From: Bdellovibrionales bacterium
GTDB lineage: Bacteria > Bdellovibrionota > Bdellovibrionia > Bdellovibrionales > UBA1609
DNA: 32,000 nt
Assembly (NCBI GenBank): GCA_963692945.1
Contig: OY843585.1
Location: 540,001 to 572,000 of the forward strand
Reading direction: 5' to 3'
Position 1 is the first letter of the stretch, and the number at the start of each line of letters is the position of its first letter. The position numbers and the translations under genes were made by a program. A model generated the notes under the pieces. It was given only the letters and a program-made list of their open reading frames with translations, had not been told where the DNA came from and did no database searches. Of the stretch, positions 1,044 to 28,842 are shown piece by piece.

Positions 1044-2537
1044 ATGAATCAGAAACCTAAAGTGGATGATTATGCATTTAATATGTCTCAAAATGAGGGT
1101 GCACCATCTTCTTGGTGTGTTTTGCCTTGGTCTCATATCAGTATTAAGAGGGACGGACAATTTAGAGTCTGTTGTTCGAGTAATGTTAGTAAGAATAAAG
1201 GTCTTTTAAGAAATAAAGAAGGGATGCCTTTTCATATAAGTAAGGATAAATGGGATGCTATTTTAAATAGTGAGATGATGAAGAGAATACGTAAAAATAT
1301 GCTTCAAGGAAAATGGAGTGAAGAGTGTAGGGGATGTAAAATTGAATATGAAAGTGATATGAGATCTAGTAATATTTCAAAACGTCATTATTTGGCCCAT
1401 AGACTGAAGAGTTCAGAGTATCCAAATTATATAAAAGCTAAAAAGTTAACAAAAGAAGATGGTTCAATATCACTTAAAGATTTTTCTATATCTTATTTAG
1501 ATATACGTTTTGGAAATCATTGCAATTTAAAATGTATGATGTGTGGTCCATCAGCTAGTAATAAATGGTATCAAGAGTATAAGGATATTTGGAAAGATGA
1601 TTTTTTTTGGGACGGAGATCAAAAAATAGATTTTATAAAAGGCTTTAATGGGAAACTAAAGGTAAATAAGCATATTTACGATTGGAGTGATGATTCTCAT
1701 TTATGGTTAGAAATTGAAAAATATTTAAATCAAATTAAAAAAATTTATCTAGCTGGAGGAGAGCCTTTACTTATTAAAGCTCATTATGATTTTCTAAAAA
1801 AATGTATAACTAAAAAGATCGCTTCTGAGATAGAGATAAACTACAACAGTAATATTACTCATATTCCAGATAAAGTTTTAGTTTTATGGAAGCATTTTAA
1901 ATCTATTTGTGTGGGTATGAGTATAGATGGTGTTGGTGAAATTAATGAATTGATTAGATATCCAAGTGATTGGAAAGAAATAGAGAATAATATTTTACGG
2001 CTTGATCAAATTGGTGGAAACCTTTCATTAAGTATAACTTCCACAATAAGTGTTTTAAATATTTGGCATTTACCAAAATTTCTTAATTATATTATGAAAA
2101 AAAATTATAAAACAATAAACAACTGGAATCTTGAGTTATTAACTAAGCCTCTTCCTCTTCATCAGCCACCGTATTTAAATTTAAATATTCTAGAGGATTC
2201 TTTTAAGGAAAAAATTGTTAAATATTTTAAAAATTGTAAGGAAGAGGTGAGGGAGTTTGACTGGGAAATTTCCAACAAGGATAACAAAATAAAAAGATAC
2301 TGTGAGATATTAGATCAGTATATAAATTATATGTATCAAGTTAAGTATGAAGAAAAAGTTTTAAGAAGTCATAGGGGTCAATTTATTTATTTTATGGATA
2401 AATTAGATCGTTTGAGAGGAACAAATTGGTCTAAAGTGTTACCAGAACTTTATGAGTCTACATTAGAGTGGAGAGATATCCTTAAATTAAAATCTTTTGA
2501 TAAAAAGTTTATTTATAAATCAGTTAAAATAAATTAA
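1044..2537 (+). CDS. Radical SAM enzyme with an N-terminal twitch/SPASM-like cysteine domain (copy 1)
   Basis: The canonical CxxxCxxC motif is present (FGNHCNLKCMMCGP). The N-terminal Cys pattern CVLPWSHISIKRDGQFRVCC...EECRGC resembles the Cx..PW..I...G....C / CxxC signature of SPASM/twitch auxiliary-cluster domains. That domain is normally C-terminal. AGGEPLL is a SAM-binding GGEP-type motif. Confidence 0.85.
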   Translation: MNQKPKVDDYAFNMSQNEGAPSSWCVLPWSHISIKRDGQFRVCCSSNVSKNKGLLRNKEGMPFHISKDKWDAILNSEMMKRIRKNMLQGKWSEECRGCKIEYESDMRSSNISKRHYLAHRLKSSEYPNYIKAKKLTKEDGSISLKDFSISYLDIRFGNHCNLKCMMCGPSASNKWYQEYKDIWKDDFFWDGDQKIDFIKGFNGKLKVNKHIYDWSDDSHLWLEIEKYLNQIKKIYLAGGEPLLIKAHYDFLKKCITKKIASEIEINYNSNITHIPDKVLVLWKHFKSICVGMSIDGVGEINELIRYPSDWKEIENNILRLDQIGGNLSLSITSTISVLNIWHLPKFLNYIMKKNYKTINNWNLELLTKPLPLHQPPYLNLNILEDSFKEKIVKYFKNCKEEVREFDWEISNKDNKIKRYCEILDQYINYMYQVKYEEKVLRSHRGQFIYFMDKLDRLRGTNWSKVLPELYESTLEWRDILKLKSFDKKFIYKSVKIN

Positions 2538-2540
2538 TAA

Positions 2541-3575
2541 ATGAAAAATTTGTTTTTTTTGTTTTTATTAAGTGTTTCTACATCTTGTAAAAAAGAATGT
2601 TGGGATGATAATATAGATTTTATAAAAATGGAGGAACATTTTGTTACTGGAAAAGTAAAAAAAGAAATTCTATTTAATGATTATTTTCCAGAATATAAAA
2701 AACGGAAAAGAGAAAAATATAAAATCTTATTTTATGAAGGAAAAACAAAAAAGTCAGATGATATAATGGTTTTCGAAAAAGCTACAGATATTAAAAGTTT
2801 GAATAATTCTATATTTTTATATAATTTTTCTAAATATATGGAATTGTCTTTTATTCCACCTAGTGTGTTGGTGAAAAAAAAGTATGATTATCCTGTACTT
2901 TTACAACTTTTTATTAATCAACCTGTAAAAATTCTAGGGGAATTTGAAGATTTTAAAAATAAAATAAGTTTAGAGGATAAAAGTGATTTATATATTTTTA
3001 ATTTTATAGCTGGAAAACTGGATGTGAGTAAATGGAATTTATTATATGACCCAAAATGTAATAAAATTATTTCTATTGATAACGATTATAGAGAAATAAG
3101 TTATATTAAGTATGGAGATTATCCTTTTATTGCTCACAGAATTATAAATGAGAAAAGCCAATCTCTTTCTGTTAAGGACTATGAAAATTTTCCTCTTGAT
3201 AAAGTAACAAAATTAACAGTGTCTCAATTTTTTAATTCTATTGTATGGTCTAGTTTATCATATTCAGATAAAATTAAGAGGAGACATGCTAAAGAAATAA
3301 TGCGTAAAAATTATTTAACAGATGATAAGATTTATTATGTAAAATATAAGGGTAGATATTGGATCAAGGACAATAGAATAATACTAAGATATTTCTATAA
3401 AGAAATAGGTGGTATGACTAAAGTTTTTTCTAGAAAAACTATTGGTAAGTTAAAATCTCTTAATAGAGAAATGTTAAAAAAATTAAGTAACAATATTTTG
3501 AGTGAAGATGAAATTGTGGGAATTCTTTATAGGAGAGATATTATCTTAAAAGAATCTGAAAAAATAAACTTGTAA
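2541..3575 (+). CDS. Putative lipoprotein with an atypical (PI3/PI4-kinase-like) kinase catalytic motif
   Basis: The N-terminus MKNLFFLFLLSVSTSC has a signal peptide followed by a Cys. The internal segment FNFIAGKLDVSKWNLLYDPKCNKIISIDND resembles a DxxxxN catalytic loop plus an IDN metal-binding motif of atypical kinases. The ATG lies 4 nt after the upstream stop, so the gene is operonic. Confidence 0.6.
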   Translation: MKNLFFLFLLSVSTSCKKECWDDNIDFIKMEEHFVTGKVKKEILFNDYFPEYKKRKREKYKILFYEGKTKKSDDIMVFEKATDIKSLNNSIFLYNFSKYMELSFIPPSVLVKKKYDYPVLLQLFINQPVKILGEFEDFKNKISLEDKSDLYIFNFIAGKLDVSKWNLLYDPKCNKIISIDNDYREISYIKYGDYPFIAHRIINEKSQSLSVKDYENFPLDKVTKLTVSQFFNSIVWSSLSYSDKIKRRHAKEIMRKNYLTDDKIYYVKYKGRYWIKDNRIILRYFYKEIGGMTKVFSRKTIGKLKSLNREMLKKLSNNILSEDEIVGILYRRDIILKESEKINL

Positions 3576-3634
3576 TAACAAGTTTAAGAGAAATCTAATT
3601 GACCTTAATTTAGTTATATTATAGGGCTAAGTCT

Positions 3635-5128
3635 ATGGATCAGAAACCTAAACTGGATGATTATGCATTTAATATGTCTCAAAATGAGGGTGCACCATCT
3701 TCTTGGTGTGTTTTGCCTTGGTCTCATATTAATATTAAAGAGAAAGGGGAGTTTAGAATTTGTTGTCATAGTAACTCCAGTAAGAATAAAGGTCTTTTAA
3801 GAAATAAAGAAGGGATGCCTTTTCATATAAGTAAGGATAAATGGGATGCTATTTTCAATAGTGAGATGATGAAAAGAGTACGTAAAAATATGCTTCAAGG
3901 AAAATGGAGTGAAGAATGTAGGAGATGTAAAATTGAATATGAAAGTGATATGAGATCTAGAAACATTTGTGAGCGTAGTCACTTGGCCCATAGACTTAAG
4001 AGTTCAGAGTATCCAAATTATATAAAAGCTAAAAAGTTAACAAAAAAAGATGGTTCAATATTACTTAAAGATTTTTCTATATCTTATTTAGATATACGTT
4101 TTGGAAATCATTGCAATTTAAAATGTATGATGTGTGGTCCATCAGCTAGTAATAAATGGTATCAAGAGTATAAGGATATTTGGAAAGATGATTTTTTTTG
4201 GGACGGAGATCAAAAAATAGATTTTATAAAAGGCTTTAATGGGAAACTAAAGGTAAATAAGCATATTTACGATTGGAGTGATGATTCTCATTTATGGTTA
4301 GAAATTGAAAAATATTTAAATCAAGCTAAAGTCATTTATCTGGCTGGAGGAGAGCCTTTACTTATTAAAGCTCATTATGATTTTCTAAAAAAATGTATAA
4401 CTAAAAAGATCGCTTCTGAGGTATCGATAAACTACAACAGTAATATTACTCATATACCAGATAAAGTTTTAGTTTTATGGAAGCATTTTAAATCTATTTG
4501 TGTGGGTATGAGTATAGATGGTGTTGGTGAAATTAATGAATTGATTAGATATCCAAGTGATTGGAAAGAAATAGAGAATAATATTTTACGGCTTGATCAA
4601 ATTGGTGGAAACCTTTTATTAAGTATAACTTCCACAATAAGTGTTTTAAATATTTGGCATTTACCAAAATTTCTTAATTATATTATGAAAAAAAATTATA
4701 AAACAATAAACAACTGGAATGATAAATTATTATTAAACCCTCACCCTCTTCATCAGCCACCGTATTTAAATTTAAATATTCTAGAAGATTCTTTTAAGGA
4801 AAAAATTGTTAAATATTTTAAAAATTGTAAGGAAGAGGTGAGGGAGTTTGACTGGGAAATTTCCAACAAGGATAACAAAATAAAAAGATACTGTGAGATA
4901 CTAGATCAGTATATAAATTATATGTATCAAGTTAAGTATGAAGAAAAGGTTTTAAGAAGTCATAGGGGTCAATTTATTTATTTTATGGATAAATTAGATC
5001 GTTTGAGAGGAACAAATTGGTCTAAAGTGTTACCAGAACTTTATGAGTCTACATTAGAGTGGAGAGATATCCTTAAATTAAAATCTTTTGATAAAAAGTT
5101 TATTTATAAATCAGTTAAAATAAATTAA
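3635..5128 (+). CDS. Radical SAM enzyme with an N-terminal twitch/SPASM-like cysteine domain (copy 2, paralog of 1044..2537)
   Basis: Length is the same (497 aa), with about 29 substitutions versus copy 1 by manual alignment. The CNLKCMMC motif is identical. The upstream 36 bp and the downstream TAATAAATGAAAAATTT are also duplicated at an offset of 2,591 bp. Confidence 0.85.
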   Translation: MDQKPKLDDYAFNMSQNEGAPSSWCVLPWSHINIKEKGEFRICCHSNSSKNKGLLRNKEGMPFHISKDKWDAIFNSEMMKRVRKNMLQGKWSEECRRCKIEYESDMRSRNICERSHLAHRLKSSEYPNYIKAKKLTKKDGSILLKDFSISYLDIRFGNHCNLKCMMCGPSASNKWYQEYKDIWKDDFFWDGDQKIDFIKGFNGKLKVNKHIYDWSDDSHLWLEIEKYLNQAKVIYLAGGEPLLIKAHYDFLKKCITKKIASEVSINYNSNITHIPDKVLVLWKHFKSICVGMSIDGVGEINELIRYPSDWKEIENNILRLDQIGGNLLLSITSTISVLNIWHLPKFLNYIMKKNYKTINNWNDKLLLNPHPLHQPPYLNLNILEDSFKEKIVKYFKNCKEEVREFDWEISNKDNKIKRYCEILDQYINYMYQVKYEEKVLRSHRGQFIYFMDKLDRLRGTNWSKVLPELYESTLEWRDILKLKSFDKKFIYKSVKIN

Positions 5129-5131
5129 TAA

Positions 5132-6565
5132 ATGAAAAATTTAAAAAATCTCTTTAAACTTCATGTTTTGACAAAAGATTTGAGAGTGCCTTTTGATTTA
5201 AATATAGCACGTTCTCTTTTTTATTTTTTAGTTTTACAAAAAGTTTTAGAGCAAATTGATAGGTTTACAAATATAACCTATTCTTATCAGTCTTTTCTTA
5301 AAGTTTTTTGGACTCCAAGTTATTTATTTCAATTTTATCCTAGAGATTTATTATTATCTTGGGGAGAGATATATTTTATTTACTTACTTTTTTGCATTTC
5401 ACTTTTTTTCTGTATGATAGGTCTATATACAAGGTTTTTTAGTATCATTACTGCTATATTAGCACTTTTTTGTTTTGGATATATGCAACAGTTTGGAAAA
5501 ATTGACACAGAATTTACATTGCCTATTATTATTCTATTTGTTCTAGCATTTTTTTCTCAAATGAGTTCATCTTATTCATTACAAAATTTTTTAAAATTTA
5601 AGAATAAAAAAAAATTAATCAAAAGTTACGATTTATTTTGGAATCAGGTGACATTAAAATTCATATCAATCTTGCTTTTGCTTTTTTATTTTATAAGTGG
5701 TGTTCAAAAAATAAGATTTTCTGGTTTTGAATGGATTACAAAGGCTGAAATATTAAATGAAGCTCTTGTATGGCTTGGGCATCCTTATGGAGAGTATCTT
5801 GCACAGTTTCCTTCATGTGTGAAAATTCTTGCTTTTTTTGTTATACTTATTCAAATTTTATCTTTTATACCTATTATATTACCTCGTTTAATTCCTTATT
5901 GGGCCATTTTACTGGTTATTAGTTTTCATTTATTTTTGGATATGTTTATATCACAACATTATTTTTATCTTTATATTTACACATTTGTATTTTTAGTTCC
6001 ATGGTCAAGGCTCTTCTATATCTTATCTAGAGGAGAAATTAATATAGGTGGTTTATTAGAAAATTACTCTTTAATTTTTCTTTTTAAGAAAACTATCTTC
6101 AAACAAAGAATCCTTCTTTTAAAATTAATTGGAATAATAACTATTTTAGGATTTTTTATAGTAGCTCCAATTTTAGGAACTAAAAAATTATATCCTTTTC
6201 CAAAAATATCTATGTATTCTTATCCATTAGAAAGAGACAATCATGAGAATATAATAAAATTTTTTATATTTAAAAAAAATAAAAAAAGTAAGGATATTAT
6301 ATCTCATAATGAATTATGGCCTATCAGAAGAGATGTATTTATTTCTTATATAAAAAAACTTTACAAACAAAAAGAATATGAAAAAATTAAAATTATTATT
6401 AATAGGTTAAAAGAAAATCAGCCTTTCTTAATGAGATCAGATCTTAGCACTTTTAAGAATTATGATGAAATACTTATAGAGGCCTGTTATTGGAAAAATC
6501 TTGATATTTATTTTAAGAAAAAAAATCCAACAAATTGTGAAATTCTATTAAAAATAAAATTGTAA
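5132..6565 (+). CDS. Polytopic membrane protein, possibly HTTM (vitamin-K gamma-carboxylase-like) domain
   Basis: The 477-aa protein has many hydrophobic segments in its first ~340 aa. The N-terminal DLNIARSLFYFLVL resembles the D..sLA.FRi motif that opens HTTM domains. The C-terminal ~130 aa is a soluble Lys-rich domain. The family call is tentative. Confidence 0.6.
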   Translation: MKNLKNLFKLHVLTKDLRVPFDLNIARSLFYFLVLQKVLEQIDRFTNITYSYQSFLKVFWTPSYLFQFYPRDLLLSWGEIYFIYLLFCISLFFCMIGLYTRFFSIITAILALFCFGYMQQFGKIDTEFTLPIIILFVLAFFSQMSSSYSLQNFLKFKNKKKLIKSYDLFWNQVTLKFISILLLLFYFISGVQKIRFSGFEWITKAEILNEALVWLGHPYGEYLAQFPSCVKILAFFVILIQILSFIPIILPRLIPYWAILLVISFHLFLDMFISQHYFYLYIYTFVFLVPWSRLFYILSRGEINIGGLLENYSLIFLFKKTIFKQRILLLKLIGIITILGFFIVAPILGTKKLYPFPKISMYSYPLERDNHENIIKFFIFKKNKKSKDIISHNELWPIRRDVFISYIKKLYKQKEYEKIKIIINRLKENQPFLMRSDLSTFKNYDEILIEACYWKNLDIYFKKKNPTNCEILLKIKL

Positions 6566-10788: not shown

Positions 10789-10805
10789 TTTTTAAAAATC
10801 CTTTC

Positions 10806-13452: not shown

Positions 13453-13800
13453 GGGGGTGTATTGGCTTCGACGTGGGTCATGACGCTTTTGGGAGCATGT
13501 AGAGGTTGCACAAGGTCCTCTTTAAAAATGTGTGTTTTTTAAACGGCAATTCTGTTGCCTTTGCTGCCTAATTTAGTGTAGCCGTTGAACCAAATTTTGG
13601 TGATGGATTTGGGGAAGCGACGCTTTTATCACCTCGGTCTTTCATTTTGTCTCAGGGTTAAAGACTTAAATTTATGAGAAAACAATCAATAGAACTTTGT
13701 TCTTGGAGGTCTATTGATTTAATAAAACAAGAAACAAACATGTAGTTGCCTGAAAGAAGATTTCTTGCGGACATGGGTTCAATTCCCATCACCTCCACCA
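13453..13800 (+). ncRNA. ssrA: tmRNA (SsrA)
   Basis: The 5' end GGGGGTGTATTGGCTTCGACG pairs with the 3' end CACCTCCACCA to give a tRNA-Ala-like acceptor stem with a G3:U70 wobble. A T-arm GGGTTCAATTCCC is present. The internal tag reading frame is ...GGC AAT TCT GTT GCC TTT GCT GCC TAA (ends 13571), giving ...GNSVAFAA*. Confidence 0.93.
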
Positions 13801-15378: not shown

Positions 15379-16005
15379 TTATTTTGTGCCATCATGTTTA
15401 TGTTGAAGATCTTTTCTTTGATCTATAGACCATACATCTAATCGACCTCCACCTAAATCTGCACAAGCTAAAGCGGTGTATTGTTTGTATTTACCACTTG
15501 TTAGTTTAACTTTTGCTTTCAAGCTTCCAGTGATACAAGCTCCACTTAAGTTTTTAACAGCTGTGTTTTTAGTAGAATTATTAGATTCTTTTAAAAAACA
15601 TTCAGTACTACTTCCTGAAGCAAAATCTTTACCACAAACTTCAAAGGTGTTGGAATTGCCTGTACCATTAGCAGTTCCTCCTATTGCACAATCTGGAATC
15701 CCAGATGTAGGACAACTCGTTCCTCCATCAATAGGGCTTTTGTCAAAACCTACATTGTAAATGTATTTTCCTACGAGGTCTAAATTGATGGCCTCTAAAT
15801 TATAATGATAGTTATTGTTATCTATATAAAAAATTCTCTCATTGCCATACAAATTGGAGAGCAATATTTTGGCTTCTGTTGTTTTTCCTTGTCTTTTTGT
15901 TTTCATAAAACTGATAACAGCCATAGAAGAAAGAATGGCTATGATACTTACCACAGTAAGTAGTTCAATGAGAGAGAAACCTTTGGACTTGTTGATAGAA
16001 TACAT
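15379..16005 (-). CDS. Type IV pilin (PilA/PilE-like), prepilin-type N-terminus
   Basis: MYSINKSKG|FSLIELLTVVSIIAILSSMAV shows a class III signal, with Gly-1, Phe+1 and Glu+5, followed by the hydrophobic alpha1-N helix. The C-terminal half contains several Cys. Confidence 0.85.
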   Translation of the reverse strand: MYSINKSKGFSLIELLTVVSIIAILSSMAVISFMKTKRQGKTTEAKILLSNLYGNERIFYIDNNNYHYNLEAINLDLVGKYIYNVGFDKSPIDGGTSCPTSGIPDCAIGGTANGTGNSNTFEVCGKDFASGSSTECFLKESNNSTKNTAVKNLSGACITGSLKAKVKLTSGKYKQYTALACADLGGGRLDVWSIDQRKDLQHKHDGTK

Positions 16006-18634: not shown

Positions 18635-19147
18635 TTAATTTAAAGGAAGAAGCATTTTTAAATCCAAGAAAGCTTTATAAGAGTAAGAGTTTGGAGTACT
18701 TCCTGTTTGTCTTTCAATGCCTACAATCCAAATTTTAAAAAGACCTCGTGTATTTGAAAGAGGTATGAGTGACAGCCCTATGCGACTTTCACAATGAGGG
18801 CAGTCCTCTGCTTTTATAATATCTCCCTTAGAATCTATGGCAAAAGCCAAAACATCAAAAACAGCTGGATTGGCTGATATATGGGATTGCTCTGTATTTG
18901 CAATACCTGCAAAACCACTTTTTCCAGGAGGATAAAATTGATAATTGTTAGAATGAGATAGAAGAGATTGCACAATATAAGCTGCACTTTTAGAAGCTAA
19001 AGAAGCATCGGAAACATCTTCTATTTGTTTTGTGACTCCTGATAGAAAACTGATAAGAGCTGTAAAAATAGTTAAAACAATAGCAGAGCTGATTAAGATT
19101 TCTACTATACCTACACCTTTGTTATTTTTTAGAAATTGAACAAACAT
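18635..19147 (-). CDS. Minor (pseudo)pilin, prepilin-type N-terminus
   Basis: MFVQFLKNNKG|VGIVEILISSAIVLTIF has Glu+5. The ATG at 19147 overlaps the TGA of the giant upstream gene by 1 nt. The track start at 19150 is a TTG one codon earlier. Confidence 0.75.
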   Translation of the reverse strand: MFVQFLKNNKGVGIVEILISSAIVLTIFTALISFLSGVTKQIEDVSDASLASKSAAYIVQSLLSHSNNYQFYPPGKSGFAGIANTEQSHISANPAVFDVLAFAIDSKGDIIKAEDCPHCESRIGLSLIPLSNTRGLFKIWIVGIERQTGSTPNSYSYKAFLDLKMLLPLN

Positions 19148-22100
19148 CAATTTAGAGTTCCTTTCTTTAAAATAGGCCGACTTATAAATTTTCTTATATA
19201 AAATTTACAACTTACTCTTCTACTATTTTCATCTATGTGAGCACAATCTGGATCTACCGAAGTCCAAGTGAAAGGGTCTGCTTCTTTCATTAAACCAACA
19301 GGATTACAACTAAGAGAGGTTGCTCGGTTTTCAGGGTGAATGGGATTGCCAAGAAAGTTTTTATTATTATTACAATCTGATTTTGAAAGTGTTGTGTCTG
19401 TTCCGACTACATATTCATCACCTTTTGTTAAAATTTTCTGATCTCTTAATTCATAAAGAGCTTGAGCTTGCCAAATACTACCCCAAGTGACTCCATGTTG
19501 AAGGGCGGTTTTATGCACATTCAGTTGAGAGCTTATAACTGTCCCTATGATACGAAGAGGAGTGGTTCTTTGTTCTATAGTGAATTTATCACAAACAAAG
19601 AAACCCGTCACAAAATCAGCCGTGCTTTTAACTATGCAATGACCAAAGAGAGCCTTATTTTGAAATCTAAAATTTACACCAGAGCGAGTTGCATTTTTAT
19701 CATCAAGTATGAAAAGGCTTTTGTCAGTCCCTCTGTCTGTAAAATCCCAAGAGCTTCTAGTGAAAGGACTTAAATCAAAAAACCAATCTAAGCTGCCTAT
19801 AAAATTTTCTGGATCTTCAGTAGGGCAATGTTCGGATGTTATAAGTAAAGGAGTTGTTGAACGGTTGAGATCACTCGGGTCTTTAGCGAGCTGTCCTTTA
19901 TTATTCTGTCCCCAGCAGTAGAGTTTAGCTTTATTATCAGTGGGTAGGACTTGAATGGCACAGGTGTGGGAATATCCAGTTGAGACCTGTTTAATGTTTT
20001 GGTTTTGAAAAGCATTTGTTGTTTCCGTTCCATTTTTAACGAGTTTGGGTTTTTTGCGAGGACTTGTAGTGGTGCCATCTCCGATCTGTCCATAGAAATT
20101 ATGTCCCCAGCAGTAAAGTTTGCCTGCTTGAATGGCACAGGTGTGGAATCTTCCAGTTGAGACTGATGTGACATTTTGATTTTGAAAAGCACCTGAAACG
20201 GATGAAACGAGTTTGGGTTTTTTGCGATTATTTGTGTTGCCAGTGGTGCCATCTCCGATCTGTCCTTGGTTATTCCGTCCCCAGCAGTAAAGTTTTCCAG
20301 CTTGAATGGCACAGGTGTGGAAATCTCCAGTTGAGACTGATGTGACATTTTGATTTTGAAAAGCACCTGAAACGGATGAAACGAGTTTGGGTTTTTTGCG
20401 ATTATTTATGCTGTCATAGGTACCATCTCCGATCTGTCCATAGAGATTATCTCCCCAGCAATAAAGTTTTTGGTTTTGGATGGCACAAGTGTGGTCAAGT
20501 CCAGTTGAGACCGATTGGACGTTTTGGTTTTGAAAAGGATTGGTTGTTTCCGTTCCATTTAAAATGAGTGTGGGGCTTGCGCGACGATCTGTAGTGCCAT
20601 CTCCGATCTGTCCATGGTTATTCTGTCCCCAGCAGTAAAGTTTTTGGTTTTGAATGGCACAGGTGTGGGAACCTCCAGTTGAGACCTGTTTAATGTTTTG
20701 GTTTTGAAAACCACTTGAACGGGATCGCAAGAAGTAGGGTCTTAGTGTTGGGATAGGAGTTAAGCGGCCATCTCCGATCTGTCCATGGTTATTCTGTCCC
20801 CAGCAGTAAAGTTTTTGGTTTTGAATGGCACAGGTGTGGGAACCTCCAGTTGAGACCTGTGTTATGTTTTTTTCTGGAAAAAAGTTTTTTTCTACATTTA
20901 ATAAATGTACATCATCTGTGTTACCAATTCCTAATTGCCCTGAAGCATTATATCCCCAACATATATTTTTAGATACACTATTACCATCATCATCATATGC
21001 AATGCTAAAACAAGTATGATTTGCTCCTGTATCAAAAACATAAGTGGAACTTGGAAATGTAACTTTCACAGCTTTCTTTTTATTATCTGTGGTGCCATCT
21101 CCGAGTTGTCCCGAGCCATTCCGTCCCCAGCAGTAAAGTTTTTGGTTTTGAATGGCACAGGTGTGGTGATATCCAGTTGAGACTGATGTGACATTTTGAT
21201 TTTGAAAAGCACCTGAAACGGATAAAACGAGTTTGGGTTTGTTGCGATTATTTGTGTTGCCAGTGGTGCCATCTCCGAGTTGTCCGTAGTTATTCCGTCC
21301 CCAGCAGTAAAGTTTTTGGTTTTGGATGGCACAGGTGTGGTTACCTCCAGTTGAGACCGAATCCATTTGGATATTTTGGTTTTGAAAAGCATTTGTTGTT
21401 TCCGTGCCATCTGCAACGAGTTTGGGTTTGTTGCGATTATTTGTGTTGCCAGTGGTGCCATCTCCGAGTTGTCCGTAGTTATTCCGTCCCCAGCAGTAAA
21501 GTTTTTGGTTTTGAATGGCACAGGTGTGGTGATATCCAGTTGAGACTGATGTGACATTTTGATTTTGAAAAGCATTTGTTGTTTCCGTGTCATTTGCAAC
21601 GAGGGTGGGTGTGCGATGATTAAATGTGTAGCCAGTGGTGCCATCTCCGAGTTGTCCATAGGTATTATCTCCCCAGCAGTAAAGTCTTCCAGCTTGAATG
21701 GCACAGGTGTTGTTAACTCCAGTTGAGACTTTTGTTACGTTTTGGTTTTGAAAAGCATTTGTTGTTTCCGTGCCATCTGCAACGAGTTTGGGTTTTGTGT
21801 GTTGATTTACTGTGTTGCCATCTCCGAGTCTTCCATAGTTATTTTTTCCCCAGCAGTAAAGTCTTCCAGCTTGAATGGCACAGGTGTAGTCACTTCCAGC
21901 TGAGACTTTTGTTACGTTTTGGTTTTCAAAAGCATTGGTTCCTCCTGTTGTGCCATCTGCAACAAGTGTGGGTTTGTTGCGATAATTTGTGCTGCCATAG
22001 GTACCATCTCCGATCTGTCCATATTCATTACGTCCCCAGCAGTAAAGTCTTCCAGCTTGAATGGCACAGGTGTGTACACTTCCATTTGAGACTTTTGTTA

Positions 22101-23631
22101 CATTTTGGTTTTGAAAAGCTTTTGTTGTTTCCGTGCCATCTGCAACGAGTTTGGGTTTTGTGCGCCTCTCTCTGGTGCCATCTCCGATCTGTCCATAGCC
22201 ATTATATCCCCAACAGTAAAGTTTTTGGTTTTGGATGGCACAGGTGTGGCTTTGTTCACCTGAGACAGAAGTCACGGTGGCTGAAGAAGAATTCACACTG
22301 TAATCTAAAATTTCTGGAGTATGTAGGCACTCCTCAAGAGTGTCATTTCTTGATTCACAAGCTTCTTGACCTGAGAAAACCTCTAAACCTTTATCCGTTT
22401 TTTCAAGCACAACCCCTTTGTAAAATCCACCCATATTCAAATGGTTATAATCCATCAAGTATCCAGCTTTACTAGGTGTGAAATCTTGATTTTGCCCGTA
22501 AAGAAATTCTCCTTTTCCTAAAAACAATTTATCAAAAAAGTAGATGGGCGTAAAACTGGGGGTTGTTCCAGAAGCATACTTTTTAAAGTGTAGATTTCCA
22601 TTTACAAACACAGGGCTTTGAAAGGTCAAACCTTTGTAGGAAGATTTTTGAGCTTCTGTTATTTTTTCAAACTTGGTAGAAGTGCTAGGGGGAGAGACAC
22701 ATTTATCATCGGGTTGAATAGTTTGACGAGCGGGGGGGGGTAGACTAGAAGTGGTATCATAAAAATACATATCCCTAGCCAATACAAGAGAAAAAGTGTT
22801 CATCTCCCTTGGAAATAAAGAAACATCCCATTCTGCTGTATAGTTTTTGGTTATGCTTTTTTCTGTAAAGTTGGTTTCAATTTTAACTTTTATATATTTT
22901 TCACTTCCACGAACTTGATAAGTTTGTGCTTCATTACTGATAGTGATTTTTAAAGTATTCATTTTAATTTTCATAGTGTTGGAAGAGGTGTAAGATTGAA
23001 AATAATCACTTAAGGCAAATTTAGTTTTATCTTTTAAGTCTGAGCTGCTAAAAACTTTATAAAAAGAATTAAGTTTAATGGTATTCAAATTTGTAGGGAG
23101 GTTGATACATTTATCACAATCAGATCTTTTTTGTTTGAGGCAAGTTTTTTGTGCTGCTGTGCAAATATCTGAAGGGTTATCTTGTCTTAATTTTTCAAGT
23201 TTAGCTAACTCAATGTCTCCAAAAAGAACTCTTTCTGAACTCATTGGATCGGTTAATTTATCACATTGAGATTGATAACCCCATTTATCATTAAAACACC
23301 ATTTTCTCTCAACACCAAAAAGAGTGTATTTAATAACAGATTGTATGGATTCTTTAAAAAGAATGAAGTTATCGGTTTCTACTTGTTGTGATTTGTATTG
23401 TAAGACATAGTGACCAACAAATAAAATCATAGGAAGGGTTGTTATTGAAATAACAATAGGCAAGAAAATAGACCCTGTTTTGCTAAATAACCTATTGAAC
23501 TTTATGAGTTTATTGAACTTTATGAAACGACTCCTATGTTTAACCAACATAAATTGCTTTTTGACTTTTAAAAGGGATGTATTCAAATGACCATAGAACG
23601 ATTTAGTAATAGTTTCCTTTTTTTTAATCAC
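19147..23631 (-). CDS. Giant membrane-anchored protein with 14 RCC1-type beta-propeller blades, first gene of the pilin operon
   Basis: The 1,494-aa ORF has an N-terminal hydrophobic helix (GSIFLPIVISITTLPMILFVGHYVL) like PilX-type N-termini. There are 14 repeats of S.G..HTCAIQ..KLYCWG.N.YGQ(I/L)GDGT, the RCC1 blade signature, enough for two 7-bladed propellers. The start is uncertain: GTG at 23631 or ATG at 23550. Confidence 0.88.
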   Translation of the reverse strand: MIKKKETITKSFYGHLNTSLLKVKKQFMLVKHRSRFIKFNKLIKFNRLFSKTGSIFLPIVISITTLPMILFVGHYVLQYKSQQVETDNFILFKESIQSVIKYTLFGVERKWCFNDKWGYQSQCDKLTDPMSSERVLFGDIELAKLEKLRQDNPSDICTAAQKTCLKQKRSDCDKCINLPTNLNTIKLNSFYKVFSSSDLKDKTKFALSDYFQSYTSSNTMKIKMNTLKITISNEAQTYQVRGSEKYIKVKIETNFTEKSITKNYTAEWDVSLFPREMNTFSLVLARDMYFYDTTSSLPPPARQTIQPDDKCVSPPSTSTKFEKITEAQKSSYKGLTFQSPVFVNGNLHFKKYASGTTPSFTPIYFFDKLFLGKGEFLYGQNQDFTPSKAGYLMDYNHLNMGGFYKGVVLEKTDKGLEVFSGQEACESRNDTLEECLHTPEILDYSVNSSSATVTSVSGEQSHTCAIQNQKLYCWGYNGYGQIGDGTRERRTKPKLVADGTETTKAFQNQNVTKVSNGSVHTCAIQAGRLYCWGRNEYGQIGDGTYGSTNYRNKPTLVADGTTGGTNAFENQNVTKVSAGSDYTCAIQAGRLYCWGKNNYGRLGDGNTVNQHTKPKLVADGTETTNAFQNQNVTKVSTGVNNTCAIQAGRLYCWGDNTYGQLGDGTTGYTFNHRTPTLVANDTETTNAFQNQNVTSVSTGYHHTCAIQNQKLYCWGRNNYGQLGDGTTGNTNNRNKPKLVADGTETTNAFQNQNIQMDSVSTGGNHTCAIQNQKLYCWGRNNYGQLGDGTTGNTNNRNKPKLVLSVSGAFQNQNVTSVSTGYHHTCAIQNQKLYCWGRNGSGQLGDGTTDNKKKAVKVTFPSSTYVFDTGANHTCFSIAYDDDGNSVSKNICWGYNASGQLGIGNTDDVHLLNVEKNFFPEKNITQVSTGGSHTCAIQNQKLYCWGQNNHGQIGDGRLTPIPTLRPYFLRSRSSGFQNQNIKQVSTGGSHTCAIQNQKLYCWGQNNHGQIGDGTTDRRASPTLILNGTETTNPFQNQNVQSVSTGLDHTCAIQNQKLYCWGDNLYGQIGDGTYDSINNRKKPKLVSSVSGAFQNQNVTSVSTGDFHTCAIQAGKLYCWGRNNQGQIGDGTTGNTNNRKKPKLVSSVSGAFQNQNVTSVSTGRFHTCAIQAGKLYCWGHNFYGQIGDGTTTSPRKKPKLVKNGTETTNAFQNQNIKQVSTGYSHTCAIQVLPTDNKAKLYCWGQNNKGQLAKDPSDLNRSTTPLLITSEHCPTEDPENFIGSLDWFFDLSPFTRSSWDFTDRGTDKSLFILDDKNATRSGVNFRFQNKALFGHCIVKSTADFVTGFFVCDKFTIEQRTTPLRIIGTVISSQLNVHKTALQHGVTWGSIWQAQALYELRDQKILTKGDEYVVGTDTTLSKSDCNNNKNFLGNPIHPENRATSLSCNPVGLMKEADPFTWTSVDPDCAHIDENSRRVSCKFYIRKFISRPILKKGTLN
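19875..22290 (-). repeat. Intragenic tandem coding repeats (RCC1 blades), several nearly identical at nucleotide level
   Basis: Stretches longer than 100 nt recur, for example GAGACTGATGTGACATTTTGATTTTGAAAAGCACCTGAAACGGAT.AAACGAGTTTGGGTTT starting near 20159, 20333 and 21178. Confidence 0.85.
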
Positions 23632-23782: not shown

Positions 23783-23841
<59 letters not shown>

Positions 23842-23857
<16 letters not shown>

Positions 23858-24058
23858 TTTAAAAATAGGCTGGAAGAAAATACTTCCTAATTTTTTTGTA
23901 GAGATTTTTCCTCTCTCACCGTGGGCACCATTTAAAAATAGGCTGGAAGAAAATACTTCCTAATTTTTTTGTAGAGATTTTTCCTCTCTCACCGTGGGCA
24001 CCATTTTAAAATAGGATGGAAGAAAATACTTCCTAACTGTTTTGTAGAGATTTTTCCT
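23842..24058 (+). repeat. Three tandem copies of a 73-bp unit that begins with the last 16 nt of tRNA-Thr
   Basis: Units start at 23842, 23915 and 23988. Units 1 and 2 are identical and unit 3 has a few substitutions. Each unit is CTCACCGTGGGCACCA + TTTAAAAATAGGCTGGAAGAAAATACTTCCTAATTTTTTTGTAGAGATTTTTCCT(CT), containing a small GGAAG/CTTCC hairpin plus a T-run. A solo GTAGAGATTTTTCCT recurs at 24739-24753. Confidence 0.9.
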
Positions 24059-24672
24059 AAAATTTCATATTCATCACATTCTTTTTCTGTTTTTGCCTCT
24101 GCTTCGTATTCTGTTTTTGCCTCTGCTTCGTATTCTTCTTCATATTCTGCTTCTGCTTCTGTTTCTGCTTCGTATTCTTCTTCATATTCTGCTTCTGTTT
24201 CTGCTTCGTATTCTGTTTTTGTTTCTGCTTCGTATTCTTCTTCATATTCTGCTTCTGTTTCTGCTTCTGCTTCTGCTTTATATGCTATTTCTATTTCTGT
24301 TATGCAGTCATCTAATTCATAATATGTATCATCTGAGACTCTGAACTCCGCTTCATTCCAGAGATCATCTAAAGAATAAGCCGAAACAATGCATGTTGAT
24401 TCAAAGTATCCTCCATCATATTGGTGTGAATAGCTATAATCTATGGAACATTCTCCCTCTTCAAAGGAGCAATGAAAAACATGGAAGTCAAAAGTAAAAT
24501 CTCCTTCACACCATATATCATAACAAAGATTGTTTAAGTCTATTAATAAAACTTCCTCCTCATGACTGGTTAGGTCGTTCCCACTGGAATAAGCTTTAGG
24601 AATTCCTCCCATCCATTGCAATAAAAAGATGCAAATAGCGAGGGGAAAGATTTTTTTTATTATTTTTTTCAT
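23989..24672 (-). CDS. Secreted Cys-rich protein with an acidic E/A/T/Y tandem-repeat C-terminal extension (paralog 1)
   Basis: The start is placed at the ATG at 24672 (MKKIIKKIFPLAICIFLLQW..., AGGAGG RBS), identical to paralog 2. The track ORF start at 24756 adds 28 aa with no RBS. The core motif is WCEG...FHCSFEEGECSIDYSY. The last ~20 codons are antisense to repeat unit 3, including the tRNA fragment. Confidence 0.7.
   Translation of the reverse strand: MKKIIKKIFPLAICIFLLQWMGGIPKAYSSGNDLTSHEEEVLLIDLNNLCYDIWCEGDFTFDFHVFHCSFEEGECSIDYSYSHQYDGGYFESTCIVSAYSLDDLWNEAEFRVSDDTYYELDDCITEIEIAYKAEAEAETEAEYEEEYEAETKTEYEAETEAEYEEEYEAETEAEAEYEEEYEAEAKTEYEAEAKTEKECDEYEILGKISTKQLGSIFFHPILKWCPR
24085..24280 (-). 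repeat. Intragenic tandem repeat encoding (EAETEAEYEEEY)n-like acidic tract
   Basis: GCTTCGTATTCTGTTTTTGCCTCT and GCTTCGTATTCTTCTTCATATTCTGCTTCTG motifs are reiterated. The other frames yield the spurious ORFs 24057..24245 and 24093..24344. Confidence 0.85.
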
Positions 24673-24771
24673 TAGAACCTCCTTTATGGTTTTGTGTTTA
24701 AAATTCGGAAAAAATCTCATGACTTTTGTTAAAGCAAAGTAGAGATTTTTCCTCAAACTTAATATTTATCT

Positions 24772-25164
24772 TCAATACAGTTCTTCATCTTCTATACAAT
24801 CAGATACTTCATAATACAGATCCTTTGATATTTCGGAATCCACTTCATTCCAGAGATCATCTAAAGAATAAGCCGAAACGATACATGTTGATTTAAAATC
24901 TTCTTCACCATATCGGTATCCATAGCTATAATCTATGGAACATTCTCCTTCTTCAAAGGAGCAATGAAAAGCATGGAAGTTAAATTTAAGAGCTCCTTCA
25001 CACCATACATCCAAACAACGATTGTGTAAGTCTATTAATAAAACTTCCTCTTCATAATTGGTTAGGTCGTTTCCGCTGGAATAAGCTTTAGGAATTCCTC
25101 CCATCCATTGCAATAAAAAGATGCAAATAGCGAGGGGAAAGATTTTTTTTATTATTTTTTTCAT
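24772..25164 (-). CDS. Secreted Cys-rich protein (paralog 2, short form)
   Basis: The 130-aa protein has the same signal peptide and Cys-rich core as 23989..24672. The identical 66-bp upstream region, including the AGGAGG RBS, is duplicated at a 492-bp offset. Confidence 0.75.
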   Translation of the reverse strand: MKKIIKKIFPLAICIFLLQWMGGIPKAYSSGNDLTNYEEEVLLIDLHNRCLDVWCEGALKFNFHAFHCSFEEGECSIDYSYGYRYGEEDFKSTCIVSAYSLDDLWNEVDSEISKDLYYEVSDCIEDEELY

Positions 25165-27555: not shown

Positions 27556-28842
27556 TTAAGCTGCTTTCTGTTTAGCTTGGTTGATTTTGTCTATAAATCC
27601 GACTTCCTGCAATTCAATAGAATAGCCGTCTTGAGTTATTGTGTTAGAAAAATTAACCACAGATTGAGGAAATTCTTTTGCTATTAAAACCCCTATATTT
27701 TTCCTTTGTGCAACCATAACCCCTAAAAGTTCTCTAATATGCTTAACTTGTCCTTTGGATTTTTTAACTTGCATTATTGCTCCGTCTTTAATTCTAATTC
27801 CGTCAATGCCCCCGTCATTTGATTGGTATGGATTTGGTGTTCCCTCAGCTTTTAAAATACATTCAGTTTGAAATTCTTTATCATTTAATTTATAGATATC
27901 TTTTGGTATTTTATTAAAAGATTTAAAATCTCTTTTGCTTTTTCTAATTCCAAGTTTCAATAACTTTTTTTGAATAGAGGCTATAGCATCTTCCTGTGCA
28001 TCACATCCAATAAAATATCTTCCTTCTTTATGGCAAGCTTCTATAGTTGAACCACATCCACAGAAAAAATCAGCAACTTTATCATTTTTATTTGTAAATG
28101 CTTTGATTAGAGTTTGTATTAAAGGAGCAGGTTTTTCAGTAGGATAAAGTTTTTCAGTTGTAGCCACATCAGGATGATTAAAAACATCTCTAGCATTAAC
28201 TAAGTTATATGTCCTTCCATACCTATCTTTTTGGTACTGAACTTTTCCACCATGTCCACCACCACTTTTTGTATAAGACCTTTCTTTATCTGGTGGATTC
28301 CAAATATAATCTTCTGTTTTTCTATAAACTAAAATTGTTTGATGTGACCCTGCAAATTTCTTTCCACCATTCTTTGCTTTCTTATACCAAATTATTTCAT
28401 TTAAAAAATGCTTCTTATGACCTCTATCTCTATCTCCATAACCAAAGATTTCATCTAAAATACATTTAACATAATGAACGGCATTATGATCTAAATGCAC
28501 ACATAAAATACCTTTATCATCTAAAAGCCTATGACAGTGATTTAGTCTTGGTTTAATATACTCAAGATATCCTTGTATGCCTGTTCCATAACTATCATGG
28601 TAACCAACCACTTTTTTAGCCCAATTCTTTCCATCTGTTTTTATATCAAACTTACTTGCACTTGGTTTATTTATTGTTTGTTTTCTTCTAGTATTAAATG
28701 GAGGGTCAATGTATATAAGTCTAAACTCTTTATCTTTTCTTAAAGACATAAACTTAAGGTTTTCAGCTTTCCAAACTTCAATTTTATCTGCCATAAAAAA
28801 TAAGTCGGATTGATTAAGCTGCACTCTTGAGTCCTTTTTCAA
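27556..28842 (-). CDS. Beta-class N6-adenine/N4-cytosine DNA methyltransferase fused to a C-terminal Mrr-like (PD-(D/E)xK) restriction endonuclease domain
   Basis: Motif IV IYIDPPFN comes before motif I VADFFCGCGSTIEACHKEGRYFIGCD, which is the beta-class order. The C-terminal ~110 aa has NDGGIDGIRIKDGAIMQVKKSKGQV...IGVLIA, matching the DgGiDg...vQvK core of Mrr_cat nucleases. The track start is TTG at 28842; an ATG at 28794 is an alternative. Confidence 0.8.
   Translation of the reverse strand: MKKDSRVQLNQSDLFFMADKIEVWKAENLKFMSLRKDKEFRLIYIDPPFNTRRKQTINKPSASKFDIKTDGKNWAKKVVGYHDSYGTGIQGYLEYIKPRLNHCHRLLDDKGILCVHLDHNAVHYVKCILDEIFGYGDRDRGHKKHFLNEIIWYKKAKNGGKKFAGSHQTILVYRKTEDYIWNPPDKERSYTKSGGGHGGKVQYQKDRYGRTYNLVNARDVFNHPDVATTEKLYPTEKPAPLIQTLIKAFTNKNDKVADFFCGCGSTIEACHKEGRYFIGCDAQEDAIASIQKKLLKLGIRKSKRDFKSFNKIPKDIYKLNDKEFQTECILKAEGTPNPYQSNDGGIDGIRIKDGAIMQVKKSKGQVKHIRELLGVMVAQRKNIGVLIAKEFPQSVVNFSNTITQDGYSIELQEVGFIDKINQAKQKAA

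Follow-up and report, generated by a model that had tools for sequence, protein, structure and literature searches.

Among described systems, the closest to the locus considered here are the pilC genes of pathogenic Neisseria, which carry genic G(9-20) tracts and phase-vary, commensals having pilC without the tract (PMC5953494); poly-G phase variation of pilC1 and pilC2 in N. gonorrhoeae and N. meningitidis is credited to Jonsson et al. 1991, as cited in PMC5953494. In Campylobacter jejuni (31% GC), nine is the modal length of the poly-G/C tracts, G6-G8 are scarce, and the switching rate of G9 reporters is 2e-4 to 1.2e-3 per division (PMC3401435); each genome contains 11-29 of these tracts (Bayliss et al. 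2012, PMC3401435), and the loci are weakly conserved between strains (PMC3401435). Repeats of high mutability are as a rule kept out of coding regions, the exception being those near N-termini in species that phase-vary (PMC3315296). A third relevant system is PilX2 of Saccharibacteria TM7x, a minor pilin that bears a seven-bladed RCC1 propeller and lacks a canonical PilD signal (PMC11623550). Here we examine a run of nine C within a giant gene for an RCC1-repeat protein, at the head of a type IV minor-pilin operon, in a 32-kb stretch of a Bdellovibrionales genome (contig OY843585.1, positions 540,001 to 572,000 of the forward strand), which as a whole is referred to as the window.

The locus resembles Neisseria pilC in having a genic G/C homopolymer of at least nine bases in the gene of a large and, here probably, type IV pilus-associated protein, in that a slip of one base in either direction breaks the frame, and in that the tract is confined to some lineages. 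It differs in that the giant protein is unrelated in sequence and has no PilY1/PilC domain match, in that the tract lies some 270-300 codons in and not in the signal-peptide region, so that an OFF allele leaves an N-terminal fragment of 308-323 amino acids (aa), and in that switching is demonstrated in Neisseria and proposed here. With the C. jejuni loci it shares a GC content of about 31%, the modal length of nine, the gap at G6-G8, the placement of tracts mostly inside open reading frames (ORFs) of genes that are surface-related, here putatively so, and the weak conservation between strains; it departs from them in number, a single tract being visible in this window. The likeness to PilX2 is one of described features, namely the type IV pilus gene cluster, the N-terminal hydrophobic helix, the want of a canonical PilD signal and the RCC1 propeller, but the protein in the window greatly exceeds PilX2 in size, having about 13 repeats and, in addition, conserved N and C modules, and phase variation has not been reported for PilX2. 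Haemophilus had also been named as a precedent in the first-pass annotation. Phase variation in that genus relies mainly on tetranucleotide repeats, which makes the parallel a loose one.

The C9 tract, its frame and its operon

The features of the window that bear directly on the tract are these.

22732..22740, minus strand: C9 homopolymer on the coding strand, CCC CCC CCC, encoding Pro298-300; the ON length
19147..23631, minus strand: giant ORF of 1,494 codons from GTG, with N-terminal hydrophobic anchor, N module, ~13 RCC1 repeats and C module
19837..22224, minus strand: RCC1 repeat array, ~aa 470-1265, wholly downstream of the tract
22706..22708, minus strand: TGA stop reached after a +1 slip (C10), codon 309; product of 308 aa, ending PPPRSSNYSTR*
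22659..22661, minus strand: TAA stop reached after a -1 slip (C8), codon 324; product of 323 aa

The run is exactly nine bases long, reads as G9 on the plus strand at 22732-22740 (...GACGAGC GGGGGGGGG TAGAC...), and is spanned by a single long ORF, 19147..23631 on the minus strand. Within that ORF the C9 stands in phase 0 (CTA CCC CCC CCC GCT, L-P298-P299-P300-A), about 20% of the way in and within the first fifth. It had been proposed from a first reading that a nine-base run encodes PPP about 297 codons into a gene of 1,494 codons, ahead of every RCC1 blade, and both statements agree with what we find, the Pfam RCC1 matches covering approximately aa 470-1265. The true start is probably the ATG at 23550 (M28), because homologues begin 14-28 residues before a conserved K(T/R)GS motif, and from that start the tract would be codons 271-273 of 1,467. 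At nine bases the run exceeds the length (~7-8 or more) at which mononucleotide G/C tracts within ORFs are hypermutable. When slips were introduced in silico, both shifted frames closed after 9-24 codons; besides the two stops given above, C7 leads to a stop at codon 308 and C11 to one at codon 325. Any change of one base removes all of the RCC1 repeats together with the C module, and the earlier claim of truncation ahead of the propellers is thus correct.

Homologue DNA was compared at the site in four sequences (44-55% identity), namely L004 (P0013, 55% identity) and L005 (P0159), both from ENA assembly ERZ26050970, L001 (P0001, 50% identity) and L003 (P0014, 44% identity). The conserved blocks on either side of the tract share one frame, as they do in intact homologues of 1,209 and 1,372 aa, and the homologues are collinear across it; on these grounds C9 is, judged by its reading frame, the ON length.

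The giant gene is the first gene of a type IV minor-pilin operon, the other members of which follow it on the same strand.

19145..19149, minus strand: TGATG overlap, in which the giant-gene TGA shares bases with the ATG of the 171-aa pilin-like ORF
18635..19150, minus strand: 171-aa pilin-like ORF (..KGVGIVEIL..), with sub-threshold XpsI/GspI and ComGE matches only; homologue beside the giant gene in L005
17643..18614, minus strand: 323-aa minor pilin carrying the N_methyl (prepilin methylation) motif, with a match to GspJ/ComGE-like models that is weak; its place downstream is conserved in both L004 and L005
16104..17474, minus strand: secreted operon product of 456 aa, which L004 and L005 conserve
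15379..16005, minus strand: 208-aa type IV pilin with prepilin N-terminal methylation domain; PilA/GspH-like

The overlap of the giant-gene stop with a downstream pilin start, which the first-pass annotation had pointed out, is present in the form of the TGATG, and by tblastx the giant-gene homologues of L004 and L005 have the same neighbours. The 456-aa secreted protein has two D-x-N-K-D-x-x-I motifs resembling calcium-binding loops, and its homologue in L004/L005 carries the precomputed Pfam label SPM.

From these elements it is reasonable to postulate that the tract is a lineage-specific, intrinsically hypermutable C9 in its ON state, acting as a de facto reversible ON/OFF switch of a pilus-associated adhesin, a reading to which we give about an even chance. 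A nine-base G/C run would be a hotspot for slipped-strand mispairing at replication, with loss or gain of one C far above the base-substitution rate and reversion at a similar rate; such elevated slip and reversion are expected of a C9 because of the Campylobacter and Neisseria precedents, and we infer hypermutability in this organism as well. The slip rate would depend on mismatch repair; C. jejuni is not known to have MutS/MutL repair. Each change of one base would stop translation at codon 309 or 324, with the loss of all propellers and of the conserved C module, and an OFF slip would leave about 3.5 kb of mRNA untranslated. Because that mRNA would go untranslated and the TGATG coupling would be lost, Rho-dependent polarity and uncoupling would probably lower expression of the downstream minor pilins. 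The giant protein, probably displayed on or at the pilus, would in this manner be toggled ON and OFF like Neisseria pilC or the Campylobacter poly-G loci.

A stronger form of this proposal, which we think rather unlikely, holds that selection has made the tract a contingency switch, in an uncultured bacterium whose genome is small and AT-rich, where the OFF product would be an anchored fragment of 308-323 aa and polarity would reset the pilus tip from adhesive to bare or absent. The OFF state would not be a null state, because the tract lies after some 300 codons. It is above all selective maintenance that we infer rather than observe at this locus. Should the tract switch, homopolymer-driven phase variation of a pilus adhesin would extend beyond Neisseria and Campylobacter to a poorly sampled environmental lineage, as a switch of known type whose gene family is new and whose bearer is not one of the classical host-adapted pathogens, and ON/OFF variants would offer a genetic handle on the function of the giant RCC1 protein and its unannotated, minor-pilin-linked family. 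Should it not switch, it would be a harmless polyproline-coding run, one G9 per 1.5-Mb AT-rich genome lying within chance.

Switch, accident or artefact

The tract lies in a linker between the conserved blocks ...DMYFY and C(V/I)..., and the residues at the corresponding site differ in each of the sequences compared.

22699..22755, minus strand: hypervariable linker (DTTSSLPPPARQTIQPDDK), the least conserved stretch of the N module
Residues at the tract site, window: SSLPPPARQTIQPDDKC
Residues at the tract site, L004: AASRAPADQNADKC (GCC TCT AGA GCT CCT GCG)
Residues at the tract site, L005: AASEAPADQNADKC
Residues at the tract site, L001: QSLLGDVEDGEPTC
Residues at the tract site, L003: NSEFIPAQSNDDRC

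None of the four homologues has a homopolymer at the site, where their codons are non-repetitive, nor do any of them have PPP or PP there. The proposal of a contingency locus, a class defined by tract lengths that vary among cells or strains, stands in its sequence prerequisites (length, frame, position, truncation, TGATG and minor-pilin operon) and fails as regards recurrence in these four sequences. Across their surroundings, no G/C run in the 45 kb that L003, L004 and L005 make up together is longer than 5, and a single G7 occurs in L001. The absence of the tract from the homologues speaks for neither side, because Campylobacter poly-G/C loci are also poorly conserved between strains (PMC3401435). 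The linker is 19 aa long in the window and 16, 16, 16 and 17 aa in the homologues, a surplus of 2-3 codons that is about the size of the tract and, being found against all four, fits an origin by insertion or expansion, for which the comparison is only suggestive. Closer relatives were sought in several collections: metagenome contigs had no match to the exact DNA flanks separated by a gap of variable length (6-13), a protein-based scan of the same contigs gave no match either, the sole match in the genome collection was RCC1-only (in a Lujinxingia metagenome-assembled genome), and a set of 5.8 billion proteins held only homologues of at most 55% identity, such that no same-species sequence was found in the genome, metagenome and protein collections searched. 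Traces of close relatives are present in Logan and ENA.

Two of the homologous genes are themselves frameshifted. That of L003 is broken at an A6 run (~10796-10801), originally A7 according to the frame and the homologues, 15 codons downstream of the homologous tract site; that of L001 is broken by an extra G (~4137) in the first RCC1 repeat, on a contig covered 2x. Both breaks may be genuine OFF alleles or errors of assembly, and we have set them aside as OFF alleles, the contigs being long-read-style metagenome contigs, one of them at 2x, and the sites being other than that of the tract.

The alternative that we take most seriously, and regard as quite possible though short of probable, is a neutral accident, in which a PPP motif arose where the linker evolves fast and tolerates indels, and happens to use CCC three times in a gene partial to that codon; the run may slip, but its OFF variants would simply be deleterious mutants, nothing would maintain it, and it would decay under AT-biased mutation. 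In favour of this, the site falls in that part of the N module which is least conserved and has indels, and the tract is absent from all four homologues. It had been remarked that this AT-rich window holds no other comparable G/C homopolymer, and indeed the C9/G9 is its only G/C run of at least six bases, the next longest being seven runs of 5 (five G, two C) with none of 6-8. With independent bases, 0.0035 G/C runs of at least nine are expected per window and 0.0034 within the giant gene, and scaling to the 1,561,448-bp source contig gives about 0.17; the tract is remarkable for one window and, because of this last figure, only mildly surprising genome-wide. As a codon-aware null we resampled synonymous codons with the protein sequence held fixed and computed the probability of a run of at least nine. 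Under the usage of the other 24 ORFs, in which CCC accounts for 16/219 Pro codons, this probability is 0.0006, and three consecutive CCC are very unlikely, whereas under the giant gene's own CCC-rich usage (17/44 Pro codons outside the tract, 4/12 in the N module) it is 0.08; once PPP is given, C9 has a probability of about 0.04-0.08 with the giant gene's CCC usage. In the N modules of the homologues, CCC makes up 0-21% of Pro codons. The points that weigh against a switch are the chance expectation over the contig, the gene's own codon bias with the two probabilities that follow from it, and the solitary state of the tract in a window with no second long G/C run, to which are added its absence from the homologues, the lack of any G/C run above 5 in the 45 kb of L003, L004 and L005, the want of same-species sequence in the collections searched, in which length variants might have been seen, and the cost of a switch whose OFF slip would probably silence the downstream pilins too. 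Set against the accident, each of the ten other PP motifs of the window is interrupted by CCA, CCT or CCG; a PPP in one relative is encoded CCC CCA CCA; not one of the run-breaking synonymous C-to-T changes that 31% GC would favour at the three third positions is present; and the position and gene class match known switches. Because the codon-aware probability spans 0.0006-0.08 according to the usage assumed, the case for selection on the C9 run is suggestive, not compelling.

The remaining explanations appear to us far less probable. An assembly or consensus artefact, in which the true length differs or a polisher forced the frame, has in its favour that homopolymers are the commonest class of error in long-read assemblies and that single-base frameshifts interrupt this gene on two homologous metagenome contigs, but we consider it very improbable: the ORF is unbroken across the tract with its flanking conserved blocks in one frame, the protein record is identical in NCBI and ENA, and the intact ORFs of the window contain 54 A/T runs of at least 7 bases (16 of them of at least 8), which argues against a homopolymer-noisy assembly and by which the assembly looks sound at homopolymers. 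There is similarly little to recommend a translational role, in which PPP encoded by rare CCC codons would impose an elongation factor P (EF-P)-dependent pause and so set the timing of folding or membrane insertion between two parts of the N module. Stalling of ribosomes at polyproline is established, and among the window's ~8,900 codons there is only this one PPP, with conserved blocks on either side; a pause, however, requires prolines and not identical codons, and no homologue has PPP or even PP at the site. Least credible of all is programmed recoding, by which slippage of RNA polymerase or ribosomal frameshifting on the C9 would yield a deliberate shorter product. Nine-base homopolymers can cause transcriptional slippage, which is established for A/T runs, but RNA-level slippage occurs less easily on G/C runs than on A/T runs, the alternative frames end after 9-24 non-conserved codons with no conserved second ORF, and a slippery run occurs at the site in none of the four homologues. 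Two further ideas were dropped. A G-quadruplex on the plus strand (G5 at 22688, G3 at 22711 and the G9) would have loops of about 18 nt, and a domain-fusion junction at the tract is countered by a GC content at third codon positions without a jump (0.24 before, 0.29 after) and by the collinearity of the homologues.

The giant protein and its family

On the giant protein Pfam detects RCC1-type domains only, and the array is also repeated at the DNA level (19837-22247), with periods of 174/183/363. The N module (~aa 28-455) and the C module (~aa 1266-1494) have no match in Pfam, NCBIfam or PDB. An exhaustive phmmer search found 148 cluster representatives (50% clustering) that share the N module, mostly proteins of 800-1,000 aa of which a minority carry RCC1, and the C module is also conserved among aligned members. 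With conserved motifs that include G(I/V)xR(K/R)WCF, FPRELN, SPVFVNGN, DKGLEVFSG and PFxWTxVDPDC, these non-RCC1 modules define an unannotated protein family. Its propeller part may be subject to diversification. In one relative's assembly (L004 10001-13630, L005 5264-9382) two gene copies are 95% identical over their first 1.6 kb and 82% over the remainder, with products of 1,209 vs 1,372 aa, and since the copies diverge after this nearly identical start and RCC1 arrays are repetitive in DNA, recombination or repeat turnover is suggested.

The translated N-terminus has a basic stretch followed by a hydrophobic helix (KTGSIFLPIVISITTLPMILFVG). This anchor, the conserved operon with N_methyl pilins and the precedent of an RCC1 minor pilin together suggest a surface-facing product. 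We regard the giant protein as pilus-associated and probably as a pilus-displayed binding protein, on the grounds of its context and not of profile membership; the display is supported by PilX2, itself an RCC1 minor pilin. Membership of the PilX/GspK or PilY1 families was considered and is unsupported by profiles: the PilY1/PilC C-terminal propeller domain was not detected by profile in the giant protein, which is likewise without an NCBIfam match or PDB relative, and the N-termini of five family members have no Pfam match, N_methyl and PilX_N included, even at E <= 10. A comparison of the N-terminus with the geopilin helix gave a non-significant match (E = 0.86), and an AlphaFold2 model of the N module, made from a 3-sequence alignment, has a mean confidence (predicted local distance difference test, pLDDT) of 39.6, which is too poor to judge the fold.

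Elsewhere in the window

A 73-bp unit is present three times at 23783-24058 (97% matches), starting inside the 3' end of tRNA-Thr(GGT) (23783-23857). Each unit comprises a GGAAG...CTTCC hairpin and then a T run, and the last units form the 3' end of ORF 23989-24756; they look like duplicated tRNA-end or terminator units, possibly an integration or slippage scar. Two neighbouring genes within 23989-25164 encode paralogues with signal peptides, one of 255 aa and one of 130 aa, nearly identical over an N-terminal part of ~120 aa. The larger has an imperfect Glu/Ala/Thr/Tyr-coding array at 24079-24301, with periods of 6/12/36/42, which is in frame and could vary in length.

The radical-SAM/SPASM proteins encoded at 1044-2537 and 3635-5128 fall in one 90%-identity cluster, and an unannotated ORF follows each gene, making 1044-6565 a duplicated two-gene module, possibly for peptide maturation. 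At 27556-28842 one ORF, with no repeat tract, fuses an N6/N4 DNA methyltransferase domain to an Mrr-type restriction endonuclease domain; it adjoins tRNA-Trp, just downstream of tuf. Last, a transfer-messenger RNA is encoded at 13453-13800, and its predicted tag, GNSVAFAA, is unusually short.

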